Below, piece after piece: positions 2,463 to 62,800 of a stretch of DNA of 64,000 nucleotides. The first letter of the stretch is position 1; every line of letters begins with the position of its first letter. The translations under genes and the position numbers were made by a program. The notes under the pieces are model-generated. The model was given only the letters and a program-made list of their open reading frames with translations, was not told where the DNA came from and made no database searches. This DNA is from Lingula anatina (lineage: Eukaryota > Animalia > Brachiopoda): assembly GCA_051362555.1 (NCBI GenBank), contig CM120646.1, forward strand, positions 17,236,001 to 17,300,000, in the 5' to 3' direction.

Positions 2463-6036
<3,574 letters not shown>

Positions 6037-6084
6037 TTTTGCAATTTTATTCCAAATTTGGTGTTTGTAGGAGTACGCCTTACA

Positions 6085-6110
6085 CCGGAAGTGCCTTGGA
6101 ACGCCAATTT
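6085..6110. promoter_or_regulatory. Candidate RSU1 core promoter: ETS/GABP-type site and CCAAT
   Basis: CCGGAAGTG at 6085-6093 and GCCAAT near 6103, 50-75 bp upstream of the ATG. This is typical of housekeeping promoters; function is inferred. Confidence 0.5.
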
Positions 6111-6376
6111 GAGGTACGGATATCCATTCGCCTTTTGAAAAATAGAACACAGGTAATGTCAAATTATGCTTTTTTATTTTACTCAACTTTCTACTAGATT
6201 TATGTAAAAGGTTTTCGCTTCTTTTGAGCTGTAATTAATAATATATCCAAATTTATTATAAAAATCCAGAGCTCTCCACTGCGGAATAATTTTATCCTTT
6301 AGAAAAGTAGTACAGCGCACCTAACACAATGATTCAGATTGGCTATCATCCACGATTTTCAATGAATAAAGAAAGA

Positions 6377-6475: not shown

Positions 6476-6788
6476 TCAATAGGTATATTTCTGTTATCTG
6501 TGAGCACGAGCGTGTCTGTGAGAGCAATTTTTAATCTCCCGAGATGTGTGATCCGTATGCAGCTTTTCATTTTTCGAACTTCGTGAAACTAAATCATCAT
6601 AGGCCTACTCGGTGATTCGATTTTAAACTTGCATTCAACGAGATTTGAATAAATTTCATTTGCTGTGAATTGTGAATTGATGATTTTTTTCTTCGTGAAC
6701 AGTTATCCCTATCCCTCTCCCCTATAGGACCCTCTAGATAGGCCAAAATGAAACGAAAGTAAAGAAAATGATATAGGCCTATAACTAA

Positions 6789-7020
6789 CACCCCATTTCC
6801 ATAGATTTTTAGATCGATCTATCCCTGTGTGGAGTCTCACTAGATTACTGTCAGCTTGGCCGGCTTAAGCGTCTGTCCCGCCTACTAAAAGCTGTAAGGG
6901 GGTAATTAACTATGGTGTCCGCTCGGCTGACTGCCTGAACCCCCAGCCTGAACCCCCAGCCTAGGGAGTTAGGTCTAAAACTTAATCTTTAGATCGATCT
7001 AAATCTCTGGGAAAGCACCC
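6789..7020 (-). mobile_element. PIF/Harbinger-type MITE, family A copy 2 (inverted)
   Basis: Reverse-complement homolog of 1292-1515. TAA at 6786-6788 and 7021-7023. Confidence 0.85.
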
Positions 7021-7384
7021 TAAGATACAAAATCAACTGAAACTCACATTTGATTATGCCGTCAAAGTTCACATTTGTAAAAAAAAAAAAAATAATAAAT
7101 AAATAAATAAAGACTGGTCAATTGAAAATAAAAATCAATCAGAACCCTCGAAATTAAACAAGGAAGGGGAAACGCACGGAGTCCAGTGGTAGGCCTTTTT
7201 ACTGACACTGACAGCTCGGACTACCGTTTTAAACATTTCTATGTTCTGAAACTCCGCCACGTTGAACAAGAAAAAAAAACTAATTATGTTTGACTCTCTT
7301 CTACATGTAGGAATAGCTTACTCGGTGCTTACCGATAATAATAATAATAATAATAATAATAATTATAATAATAATAATAGGCTT

Positions 7385-7624
7385 CAGTGGCGGATTTAGA
7401 GGGGGGTCCTGACCCCTCCTTCGATTTCTTGATAATTAAAATTTTGACTATAGCTGGATCATAGTTCTAAACAGTACCAAATGGCACCGTTCGCCCTCCA
7501 AAGTAGGCCCTACCAAATTTTTTCAGGGTCCTTCGGCGGGTCCCTAACCCTTCGCCAAGTCGGGAGGGGAGGTTCGGCTTCGGATCCGCAGACCCCCATT
7601 CAAATAATCCTGGATCCGCCCCTG
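7385..7624 (+). mobile_element. CAG-ended MITE, family B copy 1 (hAT-like)
   Basis: Termini CAGTGGCGGATT...ATCCGCCCCTG. Homologous to 12924-13210 (inverted) and 15106-15368. Confidence 0.8.
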
Positions 7625-9323
7625 CTAGGAACCCTGAGAGTATGGGGTCTTGAATGGGTTTTTAATTAATTTGACCTACATTCAAGCATACTGCTGAAGG
7701 TCTGTTATCAAGTGCTGTCTGCTGCTTTCTCTGCCTTTCCCCTTCTTTCCTAACTCGAAGACCGCCTTCAGATTCACTCATCGTACTGGCTGGGTCGGTT
7801 CAACTCTGCGGGGGTCCCAATAAAGTGTAATCAGTGGAATCAGCTTAATTGTCTGACACGCCACGAATCACCACACCCCTCAGGGACAGCCACACCGGTA
7901 GTGATATTAATAGGGAAATCCGATTATTCAGTAACACCACGTACTCTTACATACTCATACATTTACATTTGTACATTCTCTTACTTTAACGGTAACAGAA
8001 AAGTCTTAGAAGACGGTATCTCCACTGCTCCTTAAGACATATAAAACACCATATATATACGGGCTTGTGTTTGCTGTACAAACTTCAGTTTAAGATTGTT
8101 GATCGATCACACAGTAAGTAATAAAATAAAAGATATTTTTTCATTGAAAGCAAATGTGTATCTTACATTATTAAAATTTTTACTTGAATTCGAAAGAAAA
8201 GAAATAATAAACTTTAAATTTGATGAAAAAAAATTTTAAGAGAAATATTTTACAACGCCTAACTTCAAAAAGAAAAAAAAACATACTACATACCGTTTAA
8301 CTTTGAAATAAGTATGGTATTTGTATTTTGAGAGCAAAAATACTACAACCTTTAACTTTTAAGCACTTCACAGTCCCATCAAAAGCAATGGTGGTTCATT
8401 TGATCCAGAAATGTTATTTTCAAAGTCGAAAAGAAAAAATACGACAGAGTGTAATTAAAAAGAAAAATACTGCATCGGTTAACTTTAAAGGGAAAAATAC
8501 TGCAAATTATATGATCAAAGAGAAATATCGCTCAAGTATCCATCTCAGTATTTTAACAATTTATCGCGCCGCTCGGTTGTCAAGGTGTTACTGCTCGAGC
8601 AACACAGGGTGACTCCCTCTCTCGCCACCAACACCTAACAATTATTGAACCGAGCAAATAATTTCTTCCTTTCTTCTTATATATAGCAACTATAAATATA
8701 CTTTTCATTTGTACACTGAAATCAATGGTGTTTTAGTTGTTCGCCAAAAAAGCTGGCATTTTTAAGGTCGAAAAAAATACGTCAACGTTTAGTTTTAAAG
8801 AGAAAAACTATTGCAGTTACAGAGACGATAAGAACAAAAATTGTGATAGTTTTACTTAAAAGATAAAAATACGCAGATCTTTAAAATGGACGTAAAATGC
8901 TGCCATGTTTTGACTATGATTGCTGCAATTTATAGCATAATGTGCAACGTGGTCATTCACATAGTAGACACACGGGGTCAATAAACAATTATTAAAACTG
9001 AGAAGAATTACAACAATAAAGTGTGAACATTCTGTATTCCGCCACTTTATTCATAATTTTCATGATAACATGTAGAGATTCCGCATTCCACCAGTCTTCT
9101 TAAACCAAGCGTGCTTTTTTTACTGCTTGAGTTTTATTATTGTAAATCTTTTGTGCAAATCTTTTTAGATGAATAAGTGAATATCTCACGTGAATCGTGA
9201 ACTGGAAATTATATACACCATCATCATTAATATTTATATTGTTAGGTAATACCACGCAGATTTTATATTACAGGCCTCCATTATTTTGCCGTTTGCTTCT
9301 ATCATGCAAGCATTATAGACGGT

Positions 9324-12300
9324 TTAAACAAAATCTCCACAGAATACGCAAAAATTGTTCAGAAGGTAACGGCAGAGCGTCCCAGGCTTGGTAGCGTTCC
9401 CATACGCTTTCGACAATTTGTTATATAGATGCACAGCAAAGGACTCTTCGTTTACTTTGCTTTTATCAAGAAAACATTTTCGAATAACACGATTGTACTC
9501 AATAGGATAAAACGATTGCCGATACATACGTCTGACAATGCATGACTCGTCTTTCGATACATCTTCAAAACTGTTGACGTCACACACCCACGTGCTATGC
9601 TTTCTCGCCACGCGGGTGAGAAGATGCGGTCCATTTGCCGCCCAATCGCTCTGCTTATAGTTAAGGAGGTATTCTTTAATACACTCACGGAGAAATGGAT
9701 TGTGCTTATCAAATTTTATAACAGCGCCATTTAACACGGACTTTTTTCTGTTTTCCCATGCAGTAACATTATTTAAAACTTTTAAACTCTTTACTAAAAT
9801 GACGTCAGTGTCCATGTAAACGCCACCGTACAAATATAACAATAGCAACCTTATCAAGTCAGTTTCGTGGCTATACCAATATGGTCCTTTTGAAATAACA
9901 GGCATTCTTTTCAAAAACGCTTTCGAGCGACCTGCAAAGGTGTCTGGTTCCAGATTTTCAATGCGCCTTAGTAAGTTTTCAAGAGTATAGTTTTCGACCT
10001 CTACTTGAAAACCTGCTTCATTGAACTCAGAAAACGCCTTTTGTGTCAAAGCATTGCTTAGAATGCGCACTTTCGCATTTGGATGGTGGTAAAATATACT
10101 CTCGAGTGAACGGCGGTTCCGCTTTGTCTGATTCTTCGTTGTGTACACTTGAAAGAACACCGATTCAGTTGTTTTATTTTTGTTTAACTGCCTGAATGTT
10201 TTAAAGGGTGCAATCCCAAATGTTATCGCAGTTTCTCGTAAAGCGCGGGATTTTCTTATCTCGTACCACAAGGTGGCGCGAAAGCGCATGTAGATTTCAC
10301 GATTTGGGTTCATTTTCGGATTGTCCCAATTAAAGTTGTCAAGGCCTCTGTAGGTTTTCATCCTAAGGTCGACAGTAACTGTGTGAAAAAGTTCTGTTAA
10401 GCCCTCAGCTCGACGCCCTCCACCTCCAGGTAGGACGTCAGTTTCCACAAAAACTACTGGAATTCCCATGGCAACGCAAGGAAGTGCGCAATGGATGCGC
10501 GAGGTTATAACTAATTTTGCGCGTGAATATCTTTCCATCAAACTTTTTGCAGCTTCGTAGCGTGTTAATCTATCAAATTTCTTCGAACTGGGCAAGTTAT
10601 GGGTGACGTTTATCGCTGATTTTCGTATTTGATATGGAACAATTAATTCTACAGCGAGTTTGTTCACATCAACGACAAATATGCCCTCTCTTTTAATGGT
10701 TGGATTTGGATTGCGCATTAAAAGTGTCAAACAGCCCGATTTATATACTGAAAAATTTTGGGATTTTAAGAAATTAAAAGTGCCCTCATCACGAGCACCC
10801 ACAGGGCCATGATTTCGAAGGTAATTTCTGCCCGGCTCATTAAGTAATTTCTTCCAGAAACCTGATCCAAAATACATCGATAAAATCAAAGGGTTTAGAT
10901 TAACTTTTGGTGGCCACATCATGTTGCCAGCGTTATACCATCCATTTAGAAATATTGTGATTGCTTTTTTGAGATTATTGGTTTTGTTAGAAACAATAGA
11001 CCCTCTTCTAAACTGATCTTTGGTGTCGCTTGTTTTAGATATGTCATTACCTGCTGTATTTCGGGTCATGTACAAAGACCAATTTGTTGCCTTTCCATGA
11101 GTTTCTCTTTTAGTGTTTTCTTCCCAAAAATTGTCAGTATTCTCCCTCTGTGCAAGGGATTTTACTACACTTGTGACGTCCCAGGTATCCCTGTCCACAA
11201 ATAAGTCCACAAAGGGAAGAAACTGTAGCCCTGCTAGCGTTTGAATCTCGTCGCCAACGTTGATGTCCCTCGCCACCTTCACTCGATGGTCAAAACTTAG
11301 GATCCCAAAGAGTTCTTCTTGCAAAAAAGGGATAACAGAATCTGTACCGCCCTTTTCAATCTGTCTCTTATCTACCTGGCTTAGAACTTTTGACTTCAGT
11401 AATACTGAAGCAGTGTCCCAATTTTGGATTCGACTTCTACTGCGACTGTTGTAGGCCAACTGAATCTCGACCATAGCATTTTTGACGAACAACGAATGTC
11501 GTTCTAACCTGGATACGAAAAAGATACCTTCAGTGGACATCCATTGCCCCGTGAAATATTCATCTGGTAAATATGACGGCACTATTCTTCTTATATCTAT
11601 GTAAAGTCCACCAAATCTCCACAGTGCAAGTAAAACACTTATTTCATGTACGACTGCCATAAATTTACGACCCATGAGCAATTTCAGAATGGCGGATTTA
11701 GAAATAAAATCGTCCATTGGTGTGCCCCGAGTTAACTCAGATAACAGTAAACGAAGTACTGTTACGCGTTTCCACGACTTGCCGTCTATTTGATCTATAC
11801 ATCCACTGCTTCCACATAAAAATACAACGTGTTTCCCTGGATTTAACTGCAGGAAGGTCTCTATTTTATTCATAAACGTTTGTGGAATTGCGGCATAATG
11901 CGACCAGACCATGACAAAATCTGAGGTCGCATTTTGATGTAGGCCCGAGTGATGTTGTGCTGCCGTTAACGATTCCTCTTTATAGGATGTTGAGCTACCA
12001 GTATTGGCTGGCCTGACAGCAGACATTGCTTTTGTTAACTGGAAAAGAGGGCCCTTCTTATTCTCCCCGTAGATGATTTCACCGGGCGTAACGGACCTGT
12101 TCGTAGCCACCAAATTGCCACTTGTGTTAACTTTCGCCACTGCTGGAGACAGGGCTGAGTTGGCATTAAAAGATGAAATAAAATAATAGTAAAATGAATA
12201 TATATATATATATATATATTTAAATGAATTTTTCAATGCATGAACAATATTGGAACCTGAAAATGTTCTTTTTATATTTAAAAAGTATTTTCAAATATGC

Positions 12301-12625
12301 CTAATAGCACATACTGACAATGGAATGTTGCAGGCTTATCTACCAGAAACGTAATTAAAATTACAAATTAAATTCTGATTAAAAGCTAATAAAAAAGCAG
12401 GGTTTATATGTTGCAACTATCTCAATGGTCTTTGCTCCGCTGCATATATCTAAATAGGCTGCAAATAAGCTGTTCGTTTTTCTATGCCTTTAAATGCTTA
12501 CTTTCAAAACCGTACATGAATTTGAAGATGTAAATCAACGCCCCAGTCATAAACAGCAGTACAGGTAGAATGGCTTTCCGCTTGCAACGAAAACACCTGC
12601 GAAGATTCATCACCGTAGATTTCAT
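9324..12625 (-). CDS. Type II membrane tri-domain glycan-modifying enzyme, paralog A: degenerate GT32 + polysaccharide pyruvyl transferase-like + GT32 alpha-1,4-glycosyltransferase (A4GALT/A4GNT-like), ~980 aa
   Basis: Exon 1 (12625 or 12610 to 12502) encodes a basic tail and TM segment (RKAILPVLLFMTGALIYIF), with donor A|GTAAGC. Exon 2 (12154-9324) has an in-phase acceptor (ctcag|CC). Middle-domain motifs: NVGDEIQTLA..QFLP..D.FVDRD, NGWY..WPP, GARD, SGCLTL, VITSRIHCALPCVAMGIPV. C-terminal motifs: SLESIFYHHP, TDLIRLLLLYLYGGVYMDTD, NGAV, NGPHLLTRV, FYPI, AVHLYNK. Confidence 0.9.
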
Positions 12626-12923
12626 CTGACCGTATGCTATGGAGAGAGACGAAGTGGTAAATCCGAGAGAAAATATCCTCAAAATAAATGACGTGTCTCG
12701 AGCACGGAGCTACTGGTATGATGTAAATACTTAATAATGACAGTTGAAAAACAATTCATGATCTAATAATAATAAAAACTGTAACACGGAGACGTAGCAA
12801 AAGCCGGTGCTTTACTTGTGGCATAATTCATGCATTAATCATGCATTAAGCACAGCAAAAAGAACGAAACAAATTAATAATATAAAACTGAACATGAACA
12901 TAAAATCAAACTGAAATACATGT

Positions 12924-13210
12924 CAAGGGCGGATCCAGGATTATTTGAAGGGGGGTCCGGAACGACAAACCTCCGATGCAAAGCCGAAGATCGCCCCCTT
13001 GGCGTGGGGTTCGGGGCCTGCATGCTGAAGGGCCCGAAAAGTTTTTGGTGTTTTGGAGGGCAAACGATGCCCTATGGTACTGTTTAGAACTATGTTTCAG
13101 CTAGTCAAAATTATAATTTCAGGAGGGGAATGTTGGTGTGATATATTTTTCAGAAACCGAAGGGGGGGCAGGGCCCCCCTGACCCCCCCCCCCCTCTAAA
13201 TCCGCCACTG
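12924..13210 (-). mobile_element. CAG-ended MITE, family B copy 2 (inverted), 5-bp TSD CATGT
   Basis: Termini CAAGGGCGGATCC...ATCCGCCACTG. CATGT flanks both ends (12919-12923, 13211-13215). Confidence 0.82.
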
Positions 13211-46889: not shown

Positions 46890-49800
46890 TTAAACAAAAT
46901 CTCCGCAGAAGACACAAAATTTGTTCAGAAGGTAACTACACAGTGTTCCAGGTGCGGTGGCCATTGTATATCCTTGGGAAAACTTATTATATAAATGCAC
47001 CGCAAATGACTCAGTATGCACTACATGTAGAAGATCAAACGTGCTGTTTTCAATGAAACAGGTTTTCGTTATATTCTGATATTCTATTGGGTAAAATGAT
47101 TGCTGATATAAACGTCTCACAATGCAGGACTTATTTGTTTGCAAATCTTCAGCACTGTCGACGTCACACACCCACGTGGGATGTCTTCTCGCCACGCGCG
47201 TGAGGAGTTTTGGTCCATTTGCACCCCAAACTGTTTGATTATAGTTGTCTAAGAACTCTTTTATACACTCACGGAGAAAAGGATTGTGCTTATCAAACTT
47301 GAGAACAGCCCCATTTAACATGGACTTAGCTGTGTTTTCAAATGCAGTTACATTATTCAGATCTTTTAAACTCTTAACTAAAATGACGTCAGTGTCCATA
47401 TAAATGCCACCATACAGATAAAGCAAAACAATCCTTATCAGGTCGGTCTCGTGACTATACCAAAATTTTCCTTTTGAAATAACTGGTATTCTTTTCAAAA
47501 AAGTTTTCGAGCAATTTGTAAAAGTTTGTGAATCCAGATTTTGAATGTTCTTTAGTAAATTTCTTAGGGTGTAGTTTTCCACCTGTACATGAAAGCCTGC
47601 TTCAGAAAACGCAGAAACCTTGTTATGTGACAGAATATTGCTTAAAATGCGCACTCTCGCGTTGGGATGGTGGTAAAAAATACTCTCGAGTGAACGTCGA
47701 TTCCTCTGCGTCAAGTCAGACGATGTGTAAACCTGAAAGAACGTCAACACACTGCTTTTCTTATCTTCAAATCGCCTTAATGATTTTAAAGGAACTGTCC
47801 CAAAGGTAATCGCTATTTCTCGAAATGCAGGAAATTTTCTAATCTCGTGCCACAGTGTGGCGCGGAAGCGAGCAAAATTTTCACGCTTTATGTTTTCTGG
47901 TTTGTCCCAGTTAAAGTTTTCCAACCCCTTGAATGACGTCATCATTCTGTCCACCGTTACTGTATGGAAAAGTTTAGTTAAACCTTCTGATCGATTGCCT
48001 CCTCCACCAGGTAAGACATCCGTTTCCACAAACACCACTGGAATTCCCATGGCAACGCACGGAAGAGCGCAATGAATGCGTGACGTCAAAACCAGTTTTG
48101 CGCGCGAATATAGTTCCATTAAATGGTGTGCTGCTTCATAGCGCGCTATTCTGTCAAATTTCATCGAACTGGGCAAGTTATGGGTAACAGTAATTGCCGA
48201 TTTTCGTATGTGATAAGGAACAATTAATTCCAGAGCTCGCTGATCCACGTCAACGACAAGAACGTCCTCTCTTGTAATTTCCAGATTAGGATTATGCATC
48301 AAAAGTGTCAAACAGGCCGACATATACACCAAATTTTTTTTATCTCGTAAAACTCTGAATGTGTTTTCATCACGAGCTCCTACAGGGCCATGGTTTTTCA
48401 GGTAATTCTCCCCAGATACAGTTAATAGCTTATTCCAGAAATTTGGTCCAAAATACATCGATAACATTAAAGGATTAAGATTACCTTTTGGTGGCCATAT
48501 CATGTCAGCAGAGTTATACCATGCGTTTAGAAATATCGTAATTGTTTCATTGGGGTTATTGGCTTGGCTGGAGACAGTGGACCCTTTCCTTAGCTTAGCT
48601 TTAGCTTCAAAATTGCCATCGCCAACTTCGCTTTTGGTCAAATAAAAAGAGCTATTCTTTAGATTACTGTGAGTTATAAATCTGGTGTATTCTGTCACAC
48701 TGACACATTTGGCATCATTGTCTGACGGCGCATGAGTCTCTATACATGTGACGTCCCATGTGTCACGGTCCACAAATCGATCAACAAAAGGAAGAAACTG
48801 GAGCGCTGCTAAGGTCTGAATCTCATCTCCGGCGTTTATATCTTTTGCCACAGTAGCTCGATGATCAAAAGTCAATACCCCATAGTGGTCACGTCGAGAG
48901 AAATTTAACACATGTTCTCGAGGACCCACTTCAACTTGTCTATTGTCTAGCTGGCTTAGAACTCTTGAACTCAGCAATATCGAATCAGTGTCCCATTTTT
49001 GGATTTGACTTCTACTTTGGCTAGTATAAGCCAACTGAATCACAGCCATGGCATTTTTGATGAACGGAGAACGTCGTTCAAATCTGGATATCGAAAACAT
49101 ACTCTCATTACCCACCCATTCACCCTTGAAATATTCATCTGGTAACTTTGACGTCATTATTGACTGCATATCTATGTACACCCCACCAAATGTCCACAGT
49201 GCGAGTAAAACACTTATTTCATGCACGAGTACTTGAAATCTACGGCCCATGAGCAATTTGAGAATCGCTGACCTGGAAACGAAATCGTCCAGAGGTGTAT
49301 CCTTTGCTAACGTAGGCAACAGTAACCGCAGGGATTTCCCGTGTTTCCATAGCTTGCCGTCTATTTGATTCATACATTCACTACTTCCACATACAAAAAC
49401 CAGACTTTTCTCACGATTTAACTTGACAAACGTGTCTATTTTATTCATTAACGCTTGCGGAATTGCGGTGTAGTGCGACCACAACATGACAACGTCTGAG
49501 GTCGTATTTGAATTTTGACTAAATTGATGAGCTGTGGTTAACGAACCCCCTTTGTGGAATGTTGACACGGATGGCTTGGGTTCGTATATTGTTGGCATGG
49601 CAGCCGGCAATAAACGAAGAAAACCTTGATTCTCCAGGTGTATGATTTCTCCTGAAGATGACTTGACGGGCGGCGGTTTTACGCCCACAGTGTGAATTTC
49701 GTGAAGATTTTCTTTTACTGGTGATACGCCAGAGCCAGCCTTGCCAACCGGTGGTACAATAGCAACTATCTCTTCAGCTAAGTCTGTGGCTTGATCTCTC

Positions 49801-51036
49801 GATAGGCCATCTGAAATGAAACAGACTGATGCACACACGGAGGTATTTCTGATAACTTACGTCGCATTCTAGGATTTACCAACTTATAATAACTCATCAG
49901 GACCGGGACTGTTGGAGGCGTACCGTTGCATGTGCCACGGCGGGTCAGCCTTGAACCTTCCGTCTCTGATGATGATGAATAACTTAGGGGCCATTCAGAA
50001 TTTAAGATCCGAGTATCAACTGGTCCAAGGCTCAAATATGGCGGACCCTACATGAAAGGAAGATCGCTTAATCCTGTAATGATCTCTCCGCCTCTCACGC
50101 GCCTCCCTATGCGTCTGGTAGAATGGAGCCAAGATTAATTACTGTGCCCCTGCAGGGATGACGCGTGGGGAGGCGGAGAGACCATTACAGGATTAAGCGG
50201 TCTTCCTTTCATGTAGGGTCCGCTATAATTGAGCCTTGGACCAGTTGATACTTGGATATTTCATTCGGAATGGCCTCTTATACACGTTATTCGTATAACA
50301 TCCTGCATATATAATCTCTCCTTCATGTTTTCGATGTGAATAAGAACGGGGTCGCCTGAACAGAATACAATCAAACTGTACATTTTAATCGATAAAAAAT
50401 TAAAAACACTCTGCAGGGGATTAACCCGCCAAAATGAATTTTCACGAAAAAAAATCCTAGTTATTACTGCACTATCTCTGATAGTGCTTGTCAAATATAA
50501 AATTCTTGTTCAAAATAGAAATTCGCATGTAACAAATCTTATCCAATGTTTCATATTTTTATAGAATTTTATTTTTGAAATATATAATTATATGTTATGT
50601 ACAATGTCACCTCTCTTATCAATGTTTTCAAAATAAACACACAGGAGAGCACTTCTTTTTCTATTTTTATGTGGTTACGATTTCATTATGAATGTTTATC
50701 ATCGTTGAAAACAAAATTTGATTCTGCTTGTGGTATTTCTGGCTCTTCTCGTACTAATGTCAAGTTGAGAATAGCTTTCTTGGACTGAGAACTTTCAAGG
50801 TACAGTGCATATGCACCGGCCATTTCTACTTTAAAATTATCTTTAGAGCCTTACAGCTGGATAAGCTGTTGAAATATTGAATTACGATATTAACTGTTAA
50901 GTTCCCATTGGAACTTTACCTTACCTATAAAAAGAAATATCAACATGTGAACCAATGCCGCAGCCACTAACAGCAACAGTAGAGCGACTGTTCTCTTACG
51001 ACGTCTACACATTTTGGCCACCATCTCTGCATACAT
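46890..51036 (-). CDS. Type II membrane tri-domain glycan-modifying enzyme, paralog B (degenerate GT32 + polysaccharide pyruvyl transferase-like + GT32), ~1010 aa
   Basis: Exon 1 (ATG at 51036, 51024 or 51012, to 50925) encodes RRRKRTVALLLLLVAAALVHMLIFLFI, with donor G|GTAAG. The main exon (49810-46890) has an in-phase acceptor (tttcag|AT). There is a possible extra in-frame exon at 49965-49861. Motifs match paralog A (NAGDEIQTLA, GARD, SACLTL, TSRIHCALPCVAMGIPV, YGGIYMDTD), and both end in FCVFCGDFV. Confidence 0.9.
49987..50277. mobile_element. Palindromic PIF/Harbinger-type MITE (TSD TTA) in paralog B intron
   Basis: Inverted arms of about 130 bp (GGGGCCATTCAGAAT... / ...ATTCGGAATGGCCTC). 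TTA at 49984-49986 and 50278-50280. Confidence 0.85.
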
Positions 51037-59800: not shown

Positions 59801-62800
59801 TATACCCGTCAATGTAAACTTCAAAATCTGACCGTCTTCTGGAAGACCCAGAAGACGGCCTCAATACGCTCTTGCATGCCATGCACATGTGCATGCATGT
59901 TGTGAGTGTCTTATTTGTAATCGTAACTTTTTATTCATATTTCATTCTCTATATTTAAAGTTGCCACAGAAGAGCAGTCATCTTCTGACAGTGATGTGTC
60001 CTCAGATGATGAGATCAACAGTGAAACCAGCAGCAGAGCTGAAGATGGCAGCACTGATATACCTGCAGCACCACTAACTGAAGGTGGCAGCACTGCACAG
60101 TCGTCCAGTGTGAAGTCTATTACTAATGGTGTAGCAACTGGGAAATCTGTGTCTTCAAATGGGGCAAGGTCATCAAAGTCTCGGAGATCCAGAGCAGAAC
60201 CTACTATTGTAAGTGTATATTTTTGAACATGTTCTAAAGTCATTTTTTTTTATGTCAGCATATCCTGCAAAACAATAAATTTTATCTTTCTCAGTTTAGA
60301 CCTTAAAGTGATGAAAAACCCTCATATAAAAGGGCCAGATTTCAATATTTCCTTCTCTGGTCAGATGTTTAGGACCAAATTTACTTAATTAAAAATGGTA
60401 TAAAACATAAAATCCAAGTGCAGGGGCAAGTCGAGCAATGATGTGCATGCAGGACAAAATTGCTGTTTTTTCCTGTCTGAATGAGGAAAATACAATTGGG
60501 CTCGAAAATCCTAGATTTTTTAAAAGAACTTTAAAGTGATTTAGAAATTCTCATTGGTTTTGGTGTGCAAATGCATAGCACAAGCTTTATTTAAACAGAC
60601 TTCTTCGTGTGTTAATAGAACGGCTTTCTTTTAAAGCACCACCAAGCTGAAGACTACTTTGTGGAGCATGGTCAGCAGCCGGTCACCTCGGACCACACCC
60701 TGTCCAGACTAGACACGCCCCGGCTCGACCAGGAGGCTGTGGCGGCCATGCTGCATGACATACCTACAGCTTACAGCCATGAGCGGCAGAGTTTGTATGA
60801 AGAACACATTGAATTGTTTCATAGGTGGATGTTCCAGTTACAGTAAGTAAAAAGTTTTAAGGAATTGTTAATTTTGAAATTCTTTGACATAATTTTAAAA
60901 TCCACTTGATCAAGGGGCTGTAGTGCATATTATACAAATTATGTGGAAGGGTGCCTAAAAAGCAATGAACACATTTTTTGTTAAAGAAGAAAGCTTATAA
61001 TAATGTTTATTTCATGTGCAGATTTGAAAAAATATTTTTAGTGTGTTCCTTTTAGTCTTTAAAGAAAGATGGTAATGTTATGTCAATAAACAAAAAAAAG
61101 ATTAAAGATTGAGAGAATGTTTTATAATTTTGACTTCAGTGGAAAAGAAATTTATTGTGTGGTCATGTATTTTTGTTTATGTACCTGTGTTTTTCTAGCA
61201 ATGGGTTTAACCTACTTCTCCATGGGTTGGGCTCCAAGAGACAGCTTCTGGAAACTTTCTGTAAATCCATGCTCTCTGAGTTCACACATGTAGTTGTCAA
61301 TGGATATTTTCCTAGCATCACTGTGAAAAATGTGAGTATTTTCGTTTTAATCAAATGCTGTCACATATAGAAATGCTGTCATACCTAACACATTGTCACA
61401 TCAATCACTGGAATACTGGAACACTTATTTTTATGGAAATACTATATTTGAAAGATATCTAATTGGAACATATTTTTTTCTTGTCTGCTTTAGATTTTAA
61501 ATACCATAACAGATGAAGTATTAGACCACAAGGGTAATTTTAGAAGCCCAATGGATCAACTTGACTTTATTAAAGAAAACATGGAGACTCAAGGTATATA
61601 TTTAAAAAAGCACTGATTTAAGCAGACAGTAAAGGCATTTTTGGTAGATAAATTCATTTTTCTATTTTCTAAATTGTTGGTGTAATTGGTTGGTTTGCTT
61701 TTAACTTTTTTGAAAAAATTTATATGGCTTAGTATTTATGTATTGCATAATACATGCTAGGCATTTATTTTGGATATATACAGTTAAATTCTTTTCCATC
61801 CACTGAATAAAAATTAAAAATATTTCATTTTACTTTTGCCAATGTGGGATTGAAAACTTACAAGAATGTTTCCTAGACTAATTTAAAAAGAAAAGTGAAG
61901 CTTAAAAACCAGCCCATTTGAATTATTTGTTTTTCTTTTCTGATTTGTTTCAGCTGATGAAGATGTCTTCCTCATATTACACAACATAGATGGGCCCATG
62001 TTGAGATCCGAGAAGGCACAGTCCATCCTGAGTCTACTGGCTCAAGTCAGGGGACTTTACATTATAGCCTCTATTGACCATATTAATGCACCTCTCAGTG
62101 AGTATATTGGCCCTGAAAAAGATGACTGTTATTGCGAAAAGTTACATCATATATTTAACATAGTGTAGGTGTGTGATTTTTTTCTGTTATCTGTTTATTT
62201 CTTGCTGCCTTATTTTACAACAGAAAATTTGCCAAAGTAAACATAGTTTTTAATTTAATACTCGTAATGCTTTGAGGTATGTTGTCTGGAAAACTGCACG
62301 TTTTTTAAAAAGTCCATTAGTATTTAAAATATATACAAAGTTCATGTGAAAGAAAAAAAGAAATAATATGATTTCTTATAACTGTTTTGAAATGGTCTTT
62401 GTTGATAATTTATACTTATAATCACAGTGTGGGACCAGACCAAAGTCAGTCGGTTCAACTGGTTATGGTATGACACCACCACTTATCTTCCCTATGTGGA
62501 GGAGACATCGTATGAAAACTCGTTACTGGTGCAGCAGTCAGGTGCTCTTGCTCTGAGCTCGTTAACCAACGTGATGCAGAGCTTGACTCCCAATGCCAAG
62601 AAGATTTTCATGATTGTTGTTCAGTATCAGCTTGACAGCCAGGACAACCCTGCTTACATAGGTATCTTTCAAATGGCAAAAAAAAACAAAAACAAAAAAA
62701 TTAACATTATATTGAAGGTACTATCACACTCTTGCCTATAGCACTAACATATTAGAAGGAAATATTCATATGCAGACAAACACAAGGGATTCAATACTTA

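Follow-up and report, generated by a model that had tools for sequence, protein, structure and literature searches.

A candidate Golgi enzyme of Lingula anatina with a ketal-pyruvyltransferase domain set between GT32-type modules

The window analysed here is a stretch of 64,000 nucleotides from the brachiopod Lingula anatina (contig CM120646.1, positions 17,236,001 to 17,300,000). On its minus strand, an open reading frame at 9324-12290 (988 codons, stop to stop) belongs to a two-exon gene with a phase 1 junction, whose spliced product of 984 amino acids comprises a membrane anchor, a stem and three luminal modules. The gene is real and, by every in silico test applied, its central module falls in the ketal-pyruvyltransferase family. 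Judged from sequence and predicted models, the gene likely encodes a Golgi enzyme that caps glycans with pyruvate from phosphoenolpyruvate (PEP) and is joined to an alpha-glycosyltransferase; we give this reading a probability of about 0.7. Residue numbers refer to the translation of exon 2 (P0001, 942 amino acids), and the addition of 42 converts them to the full-length numbering. The gene contains the following features.

12502-12625, minus strand: exon 1, with the ATG at 12625, 41 codons plus one base, and the GT donor at 12501
12515-12571, minus strand: membrane helix in exon 1 (residues 19-37 of the full-length protein, Kyte-Doolittle 2.05), preceded by a basic cytosolic tail
12155-12501, minus strand: GT-AG intron of 347 bases, with the AG acceptor at 12155; the junction agrees with the database protein P0147
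9324-12154, minus strand: exon 2, the entire luminal part through the stop codon, with 12 N-glycosylation sequons
11928-12154, minus strand: stem, predicted to be disordered (predicted local distance difference test, pLDDT, below 50)
11337-11927, minus strand: degenerate GT32-like module of the GT-A type without DxD, from profile and alignment
10218-11315, minus strand: PF04230 ketal-pyruvyltransferase domain, from Pfam, motifs and predicted fold
11250-11261, minus strand: codons of the NxGD motif in the PF04230 domain
10980-11156, minus strand: variable insert within the pyruvyltransferase domain, predicted to be disordered (dN/dS 0.66)
10791-10793, minus strand: R of RxxxT in the PF04230 domain
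10491-10499, minus strand: RxH in the PF04230 domain
10410-10412, minus strand: additional conserved R in the PF04230 domain
9327-10175, minus strand: intact domain of the GT32 alpha-1,4-glycosyltransferase type (PF04488 and PF04572)
9804-9812, minus strand: DxD of the last GT32 module (residues 781-783 of exon 2)

The splice is backed by P0147: its N-terminus agrees with exon 1 at 32 of 41 positions, a single residue comes next, and the sequence then continues into exon 2 with 290 of 385 residues matching (75%). The RefSeq model of a second paralog in the window has the same anchor-exon layout. The spliced type II anchor proposed in the initial annotation is thus borne out by the exon 1 helix, the phase 1 junction, the homolog and the paralog. 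According to hydropathy and the model, the protein has the layout of a type II Golgi enzyme (short basic tail, one helix, disordered stem, and luminal domains with the 12 sequons), and a Golgi location with lumen-facing topology is predicted.

The middle domain matches PF04230 at residues 298-572, over positions 1-279 of the 280 in the Pfam model, with 60.4 bits (cut-off 25.3, E 3e-16); the second paralog scores 52.1 bits. The motifs of ketal-pyruvyltransferases are NxGD, RxxxS/T and a C-terminal His, as given for the 6X1L structure of WbbZ (PMC10629545; this and the other papers cited are quoted from the parts of their text that were available). All three are present (N298-G300-D301, R454-T458 and R552-H554), neither window copy has lost a motif residue, and the longer motif series quoted by the initial annotation was found in full. 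The functional residues reported for Pvg1p of Schizosaccharomyces pombe are D106, R217 and R337 (PMC4872226), and those of CsaB are R148, H308 and K328, with activity lost upon mutation of R148 or H308 (PMC10435577). By motif, they match D301, R454, R552, H554 and probably R581. The RxH motif aligns with R337-H339 of Pvg1p in the profile match, and R581 sits one column off Pvg1p K361 (CsaB K328). Conservation was counted among 91 members, comprising both window copies and the homologs with more than 250 residues of the middle domain and more than 180 of the last GT32 module: D301 is kept in 80, R454 in 81, R552 in 79, H554 in 85 and R581 in 79.

The model of the whole luminal part (pLDDT 84.4, predicted template-modelling score, pTM, 0.85) shows the three domains packed together. 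Because the matches listed by Foldseek for this model were of the GT-A type only, the middle domain was also modelled alone with AlphaFold2 (pLDDT 85.5). Foldseek then placed Pvg1p first (E 3.3e-4, template-modelling (TM) score 0.30) and WbbZ second. Rescoring of the top 1000 Foldseek chains with VIA-align kept this order, with Z 14.2 for Pvg1p (root-mean-square deviation 4.1, 250 residues aligned) and 13.0 for WbbZ (4.3, 216), while the next entry reaches 9.7; GT-B enzymes and uridine diphosphate (UDP)-GlcNAc epimerases trail at Z 8-9.7. The predicted fold is thus two-Rossmann and GT-B-like, closest to Pvg1p and WbbZ, and the structural comparison suggested at the outset came out in favour of a pyruvyltransferase. 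By sequence alone, a search of the PDB with exon 2 matched no pyruvyltransferase. The Atlas score of the middle domain (0.86) was treated as a lead only.

The second copy in the window allows selection to be estimated. It occupies two segments.

46890-49810, minus strand: second paralog, exon 2, three modules intact, 96.9% identity over 719 amino acids to L. anatina LOC106160055
50925-51036, minus strand: second paralog, exon 1, membrane anchor, phase 1

Between the two paralogs, the ratio of nonsynonymous to synonymous substitution (dN/dS, Nei-Gojobori) is 0.27 across the luminal part. Among the three modules, purifying selection is strongest in the middle domain (0.16, insert excluded); the last GT32 module (0.27) and the first module (0.38) follow, and the insert reaches 0.66. 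The first gene is 57-61% identical to three annotated L. anatina paralogs. The second paralog is complete to its end in the window, and its RefSeq match LOC106160055 ends at 766 amino acids; LOC106160029 likewise lacks most of the last GT32 module, and P0147, which is closely related to the first gene, is truncated. These truncations suggest allele or assembly differences together with gene turnover.

The last module matches PF04488 at residues 678-795 (59.2 bits) and PF04572 at 814-938 (78.6 bits), and its DxD at residues 781-783 is intact, so that the three Pfam families expected by the initial annotation (PF04230, PF04488 and PF04572) are all found above their cut-offs. It had further claimed GT32 domains in the plural, which holds for the last module; the first is GT32-like, with no DxD and no Pfam match of its own. 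In the alignment of the first module, the first Asp of DxD occurs in 24 of 56 rows, and two columns further on Asp is not among the four commonest residues. The first-module profile matches the last module at E 2e-7 (search space of 1000 sequences), pairwise BLASTP between the two gives no match, and the nearest Atlas clusters of the first module are DxD GT-A enzymes (0.92-0.94). Matches to toxin-type glycosyltransferases were set aside as reflecting the shared GT-A fold, being below the cut-off or at E above 0.1 by sequence.

In the eukaryote-type family the first module precedes the pyruvyltransferase domain even where GT8 takes the place of GT32 (13 of 32 scanned proteins) or the other partner is absent, and this constancy suggests that it serves as a structural element or holds the acceptor. 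Both active sites are kept in 37 of the 91 members, the pyruvyl site only in 36, the DxD only in 16 and neither in 2, where 7.5 would be expected (Fisher p 0.003, with members counted as independent although related). The rarity of the double loss suggests that each domain is able to keep the gene alive. The first Lingula gene retains both sites.

New here is the fusion of a TPT-family transporter domain (PF03151) to the pyruvyltransferase domain, present in 40 of 59 homologs, animals included; among the named ones are proteins of Asterias, Patiria, Xenia, Hydractinia, Acanthaster and the amoeba Balamuthia. The yeast carriers Pet1p and Pet2p are presumably members of the same family. Pvg1p relies on these two for its PEP in the Golgi (PMC4872226, PMC6801904), and, taken with this need, the fusion in the homologs favours pyruvyl transfer from PEP over sugar transfer. 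When one fused transporter domain was searched against the PDB, its best match was the phosphate translocator 5Y78 (E 4.5e-18), compared with E 0.4 for SLC35B1. The phosphate-binding residues in the 5Y78 structure (GsTPT2) are K204, Y339, K362 and R363 (bioRxiv 10.1101/169169); in the alignment to 5Y78, from which the numbering is taken, the fused transporters keep them in 33 of 39, 36 of 40, 35 of 40 and 35 of 40 cases, respectively. They differ from the plastid TPT/PPT transporters in scores below the TIGR00817 cut-off, in the replacement of H185 by N (29 of 39), and in an extra, eleventh hydrophobic helix that follows a basic loop and leads into the enzyme domains (38 of 40). With this helix the enzyme domains would face the lumen, and it would be the equivalent of the lone anchor in Lingula. 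The likeness to plastid TPT/PPT concerns the fused homologs only, as the Lingula genes have no transporter. A second kind of transporter linkage is seen in a metagenome locus (L127:191-4573), where a gene in two frames with GT8, GT32-like and pyruvyltransferase parts is followed directly by a separate TPT gene on the same strand. Another locus (L105:2540-6286) encodes a fusion of TPT, pyruvyltransferase and S-adenosylmethionine (SAM) methyltransferase.

In the proposed mechanism, the pyruvyltransferase domain would take pyruvate from PEP and attach it to the terminal sugar of a glycan as a negatively charged ketal cap; the contribution of the GT32 domain to this pathway would be an alpha-linked sugar. 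PEP would very probably be held in the GT-B cleft by R454, R552, H554 and probably R581, and D301 would face the acceptor hydroxyl; the assignment is modelled on D106, R217, R337, H339 and K361 of Pvg1p. The import of PEP into the Golgi would probably be carried out by a TPT-family exchanger, in Lingula a separate protein, that returns the released phosphate 1:1; such a stoichiometry would fit, because the pyruvyl-transfer reaction releases phosphate. The last domain is likely an active UDP-sugar alpha-transferase, and the first module is, on balance, expected to be a non-catalytic scaffold or an acceptor-holding domain. As the acceptor, a terminal sugar of the beta-galactose type is tentatively favoured, with the ketal and the alpha-1,4 sugar as alternative ends, since both use O4.

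The closest characterised counterpart is Pvg1p, which shares with the Lingula protein the type II layout, the best structural match and, by motif, the catalytic and PEP-site residues; Pvg1p also needs a PEP carrier, which is fused in most homologs of the Lingula protein (the 40 of 59 above). The identity is only 14-16%, however, and Pvg1p consists of one domain, its transporters being distinct proteins, whereas the Lingula protein is from an animal and has its pyruvyltransferase domain between two GT32-type modules. The bacterial enzymes WbbZ, CsaB and WcfO share NxGD, RxxxS/T and RxH, but they are mostly stand-alone proteins of ~330 amino acids, and they are cytoplasmic, without anchor or transporter. 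The last module resembles the GT32 enzymes A4GALT (Gb3 synthase) and A4GNT in both Pfam regions, the DxD and the GT-A fold. To our knowledge, the characterised animal GT32 enzymes have a single domain, in contrast to the degenerate second GT32 copy that stands ahead of the pyruvyltransferase here.

Several observations weigh against the pyruvate-capping enzyme. At least one of the four core pyruvyl residues is lost in 18 of the 91 members. By profile, the sequence of Pvg1p is the best match in the PDB but a weak one (E 0.048), and the Foldseek TM-score to Pvg1p is just 0.30-0.33. F263 is said to disfavour PEP in the chloroplast TPT, and the PEP-preferring PPT has Asn there (bioRxiv 10.1101/169169); in the fused transporters this position is still Phe in 36 of 39 cases and Asn in 1, which places them outside the PPT subtype by this residue. 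In eight of eight fused proteins TIGR00817 scores 34-100 bits against a cut-off of 317.9, and two of the 32 proteins scanned (P0159 and P0177) carry a UAA-family transporter instead of TPT. With the transporter profile, no transporter was found in the Lingula gene or elsewhere in the 64-kb window. Expression is low at best in the sampled RNA runs (eight of the nine from the same species, 6-30% of each read): the mean depth over exon 2 does not exceed 2.2 and is zero in two of the eight (X4 and X6), and no spliced joint across the intron 12155-12501 was seen in any, unlike the neighbouring leucine-rich repeat (LRR) gene, which shows a spliced joint in four of four runs. Reads of run X3, which looks stranded, are sense to the gene, and the sole pair in run X1 has the opposite orientation. 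Finally, the titles and abstract openings searched contained no record of pyruvylated glycans from Lingula.

The alternative that survives best is a variant of the capping reading and differs in the last step only: GT32 would add an alpha-1,4 sugar and the pyruvyltransferase would then cap this same sugar, the order put forward in the initial annotation. The retaining glycosyltransferase families include both GT8 and GT32, and the partner domain is of the retaining alpha-transferase type wherever it is recognised (GT32, or GT8 in the 13 of 32 noted above). The three luminal domains share one confident model (pTM 0.85), and 8 of the 81 prokaryotic loci have a GT32-like gene immediately after the pyruvyltransferase gene, on its downstream side (a raw count, not set against a background rate). 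On the other hand, the recorded animal ketals sit on beta-Gal, 4,6-linked in a sponge adhesion glycan and 3,4-linked in an Aplysia glycolipid (PMC6801904, PMC6994554), WbbZ left terminal alpha-Gal unmodified (PMC10629545), and the pyruvyl site is kept with the DxD lost in 36 of the 91 members. Capping of the added sugar appears somewhat less likely, and we tentatively prefer terminal beta-galactose with alternative ends.

It is improbable that only GT32 works in Lingula and that the pyruvyltransferase domain persists as a conserved scaffold, with PEP absent from the Golgi for want of a fused transporter. The lack of a transporter in the gene and the window agrees with this idea, as do the stand-alone relatives of the fused transporter, which gave 17 matches and no Lingula protein (in a weak, word-based search), and the transporter-less proteins P0012, P0020, P0024 and P0025, which have lost pyruvyl residues and kept the DxD. 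A mere scaffold is at odds, however, with the lowest dN/dS (0.16) in the middle domain and the intact motifs in both copies, and Pvg1p likewise works with separate transporters.

Transfer of a sugar by a GT-B-type middle domain, with the fused transporter carrying nucleotide sugars, was raised as a caveat in the initial annotation and is quite improbable. GT-B enzymes and UDP-GlcNAc epimerases do appear at Z 8-9.7, but both ketal-pyruvyltransferases of known structure outscore every other row by 3-4 Z units, and the pyruvyltransferase motifs, including the full PEP site, are complete. The TPT and nucleotide-sugar transporters share one superfamily, F263 is kept and two members carry a UAA transporter; the fused transporter is nevertheless far closer to the phosphate translocator than to SLC35B1, and most homologs carry this phosphate-translocator type.

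A pseudogene, or contaminant DNA from outside the animal genome, is very improbable: the few RNA reads without a splice joint, the coding sequence nearly all in one exon, the truncated P0147, the two RefSeq paralog models lacking most of the last domain and a foraminifer protein in the same branch of the tree are outweighed by 942 codons without a stop, a luminal dN/dS of 0.27, the GT-AG intron in both copies, the three annotated L. anatina paralogs and the setting among intron-rich genes (LRR, C-type lectin and ORC2).

A HMMER search of 1.84 billion representatives gave 3015 matches at E 0.001 and 195 at 1e-30, of which the best 150 were examined. In a quick IQ-TREE analysis of 79 chosen rows, the 63 rows of multidomain type stand apart from 16 prokaryotic rows (Shimodaira-Hasegawa-like approximate likelihood-ratio test, SH-aLRT, 99). 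The four Lingula rows cluster with a protein of the foraminifer Bolivina and five anchored proteins (SH-aLRT 97), separate from a 26-row transporter-fused group with cnidarian and echinoderm proteins (SH-aLRT 98). The approximately unbiased (AU) test rejects a tree in which the Lingula genes derive from the transporter-fused animal branch (p 0.0007; LG+G4, quick search, group picked after an earlier tree). A recent transfer from bacteria is unsupported, as the prokaryotic rows fall outside the multidomain group; the initial annotation's term "bacterial-like" is therefore right for the domain family and misplaced for the nearest relatives, which are multidomain proteins of eukaryote type. The Lingula branch may, on this sequence evidence, stem from an old paralogy or from a transfer from another eukaryote. 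Among the homologs that carry an organism name no sponge or mollusc member was found, and a search of proteins of 2203-5000 amino acids returned no homolog.

Prokaryotic relatives number in the hundreds, the best 80 being 26-36% identical, and their domain is mostly stand-alone, with a median frame of 332 amino acids. On a Sphingobium plasmid (NZ_CP081003.1, L001:5092-6771), a Caps_synth and PF04230 fusion lies beside rhamnose and capsule export genes; it is annotated only as a capsular polysaccharide synthesis protein. A viral source of the Lingula gene is unsupported: phage records gave no match, and viral contigs gave none when searched with the single protein and 17 loci when searched with the profile, whose best segments share 25-33% identity and all of which are without the three-module layout. 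One viral contig (L086:1183-3639) joins Caps_synth, a TylF methyltransferase and a pyruvyltransferase, and stand-alone relatives of the pyruvyltransferase domain occur on the GVMAG-labelled contigs L083-L085, L087, L093 and L097.

Glycans bearing pyruvate were described decades ago, as glyconectins of sponges and glycolipids of the sea hare. In the available parts of the reviews, the characterised ketal-pyruvyltransferases are confined to CsaB and WcfO of bacteria and Pvg1p of fission yeast (PMC6801904, PMC6994554). The pyruvylated sponge epitope is treated in PMC7828597, and two pyruvyltransferase-type genes are reported in Cryptosporidium (PMC6877471). In line with the initial annotation, no animal pyruvyltransferase was found among the titles and abstract openings of the literature searched, which takes in few subscription journals, nor was any description of a matching architecture; PMC11976392 gave no match in its available part. 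The database proteins already bear automatic Pfam PF04230 labels. A sequence survey of 2019 retained only proteins of 250-600 amino acids (PMC6801904), a limit at which fusions of 850-1250 amino acids would be dropped.

The family supplies concrete animal candidates for expression and assay. At a little under even odds, a one-gene Golgi pyruvylation line would be common in invertebrates and protists, pyruvate would be an overlooked cap resembling sialic acid, the family would make the sponge epitope and the nerve glycolipids of Aplysia, and the Lingula branch would be a transporter-less one of separate origin. If this holds, acid-labile pyruvate caps have been overlooked in invertebrate glycomics, the TPT-family domain has acquired a role in Golgi PEP import in animals, and the transporter-enzyme fusion offers one route by which donor import is coupled to product removal.

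The surrounding genes (LRR, multi-C-type-lectin and ORC2) are intron-rich. The lectin gene, with many exons at 24673-44983 (plus strand) and PF00059 in 13 frames, lies between the two enzyme paralogs; it may represent a glycan reader between two glycan writers, or the arrangement may be due to chance. The LRR gene at 5246-6234 (minus strand) is spliced and expressed, and we take it to resemble the Ras suppressor RSU1. Exons of ORC2 (PF04084) are found at 61134-62738 (plus strand). Short dispersed repeats at 6790-7020, 7400-7900 and 12890-13210 draw many partly matching RNA reads, and the depth reaches several hundred reads at 6769-7035.

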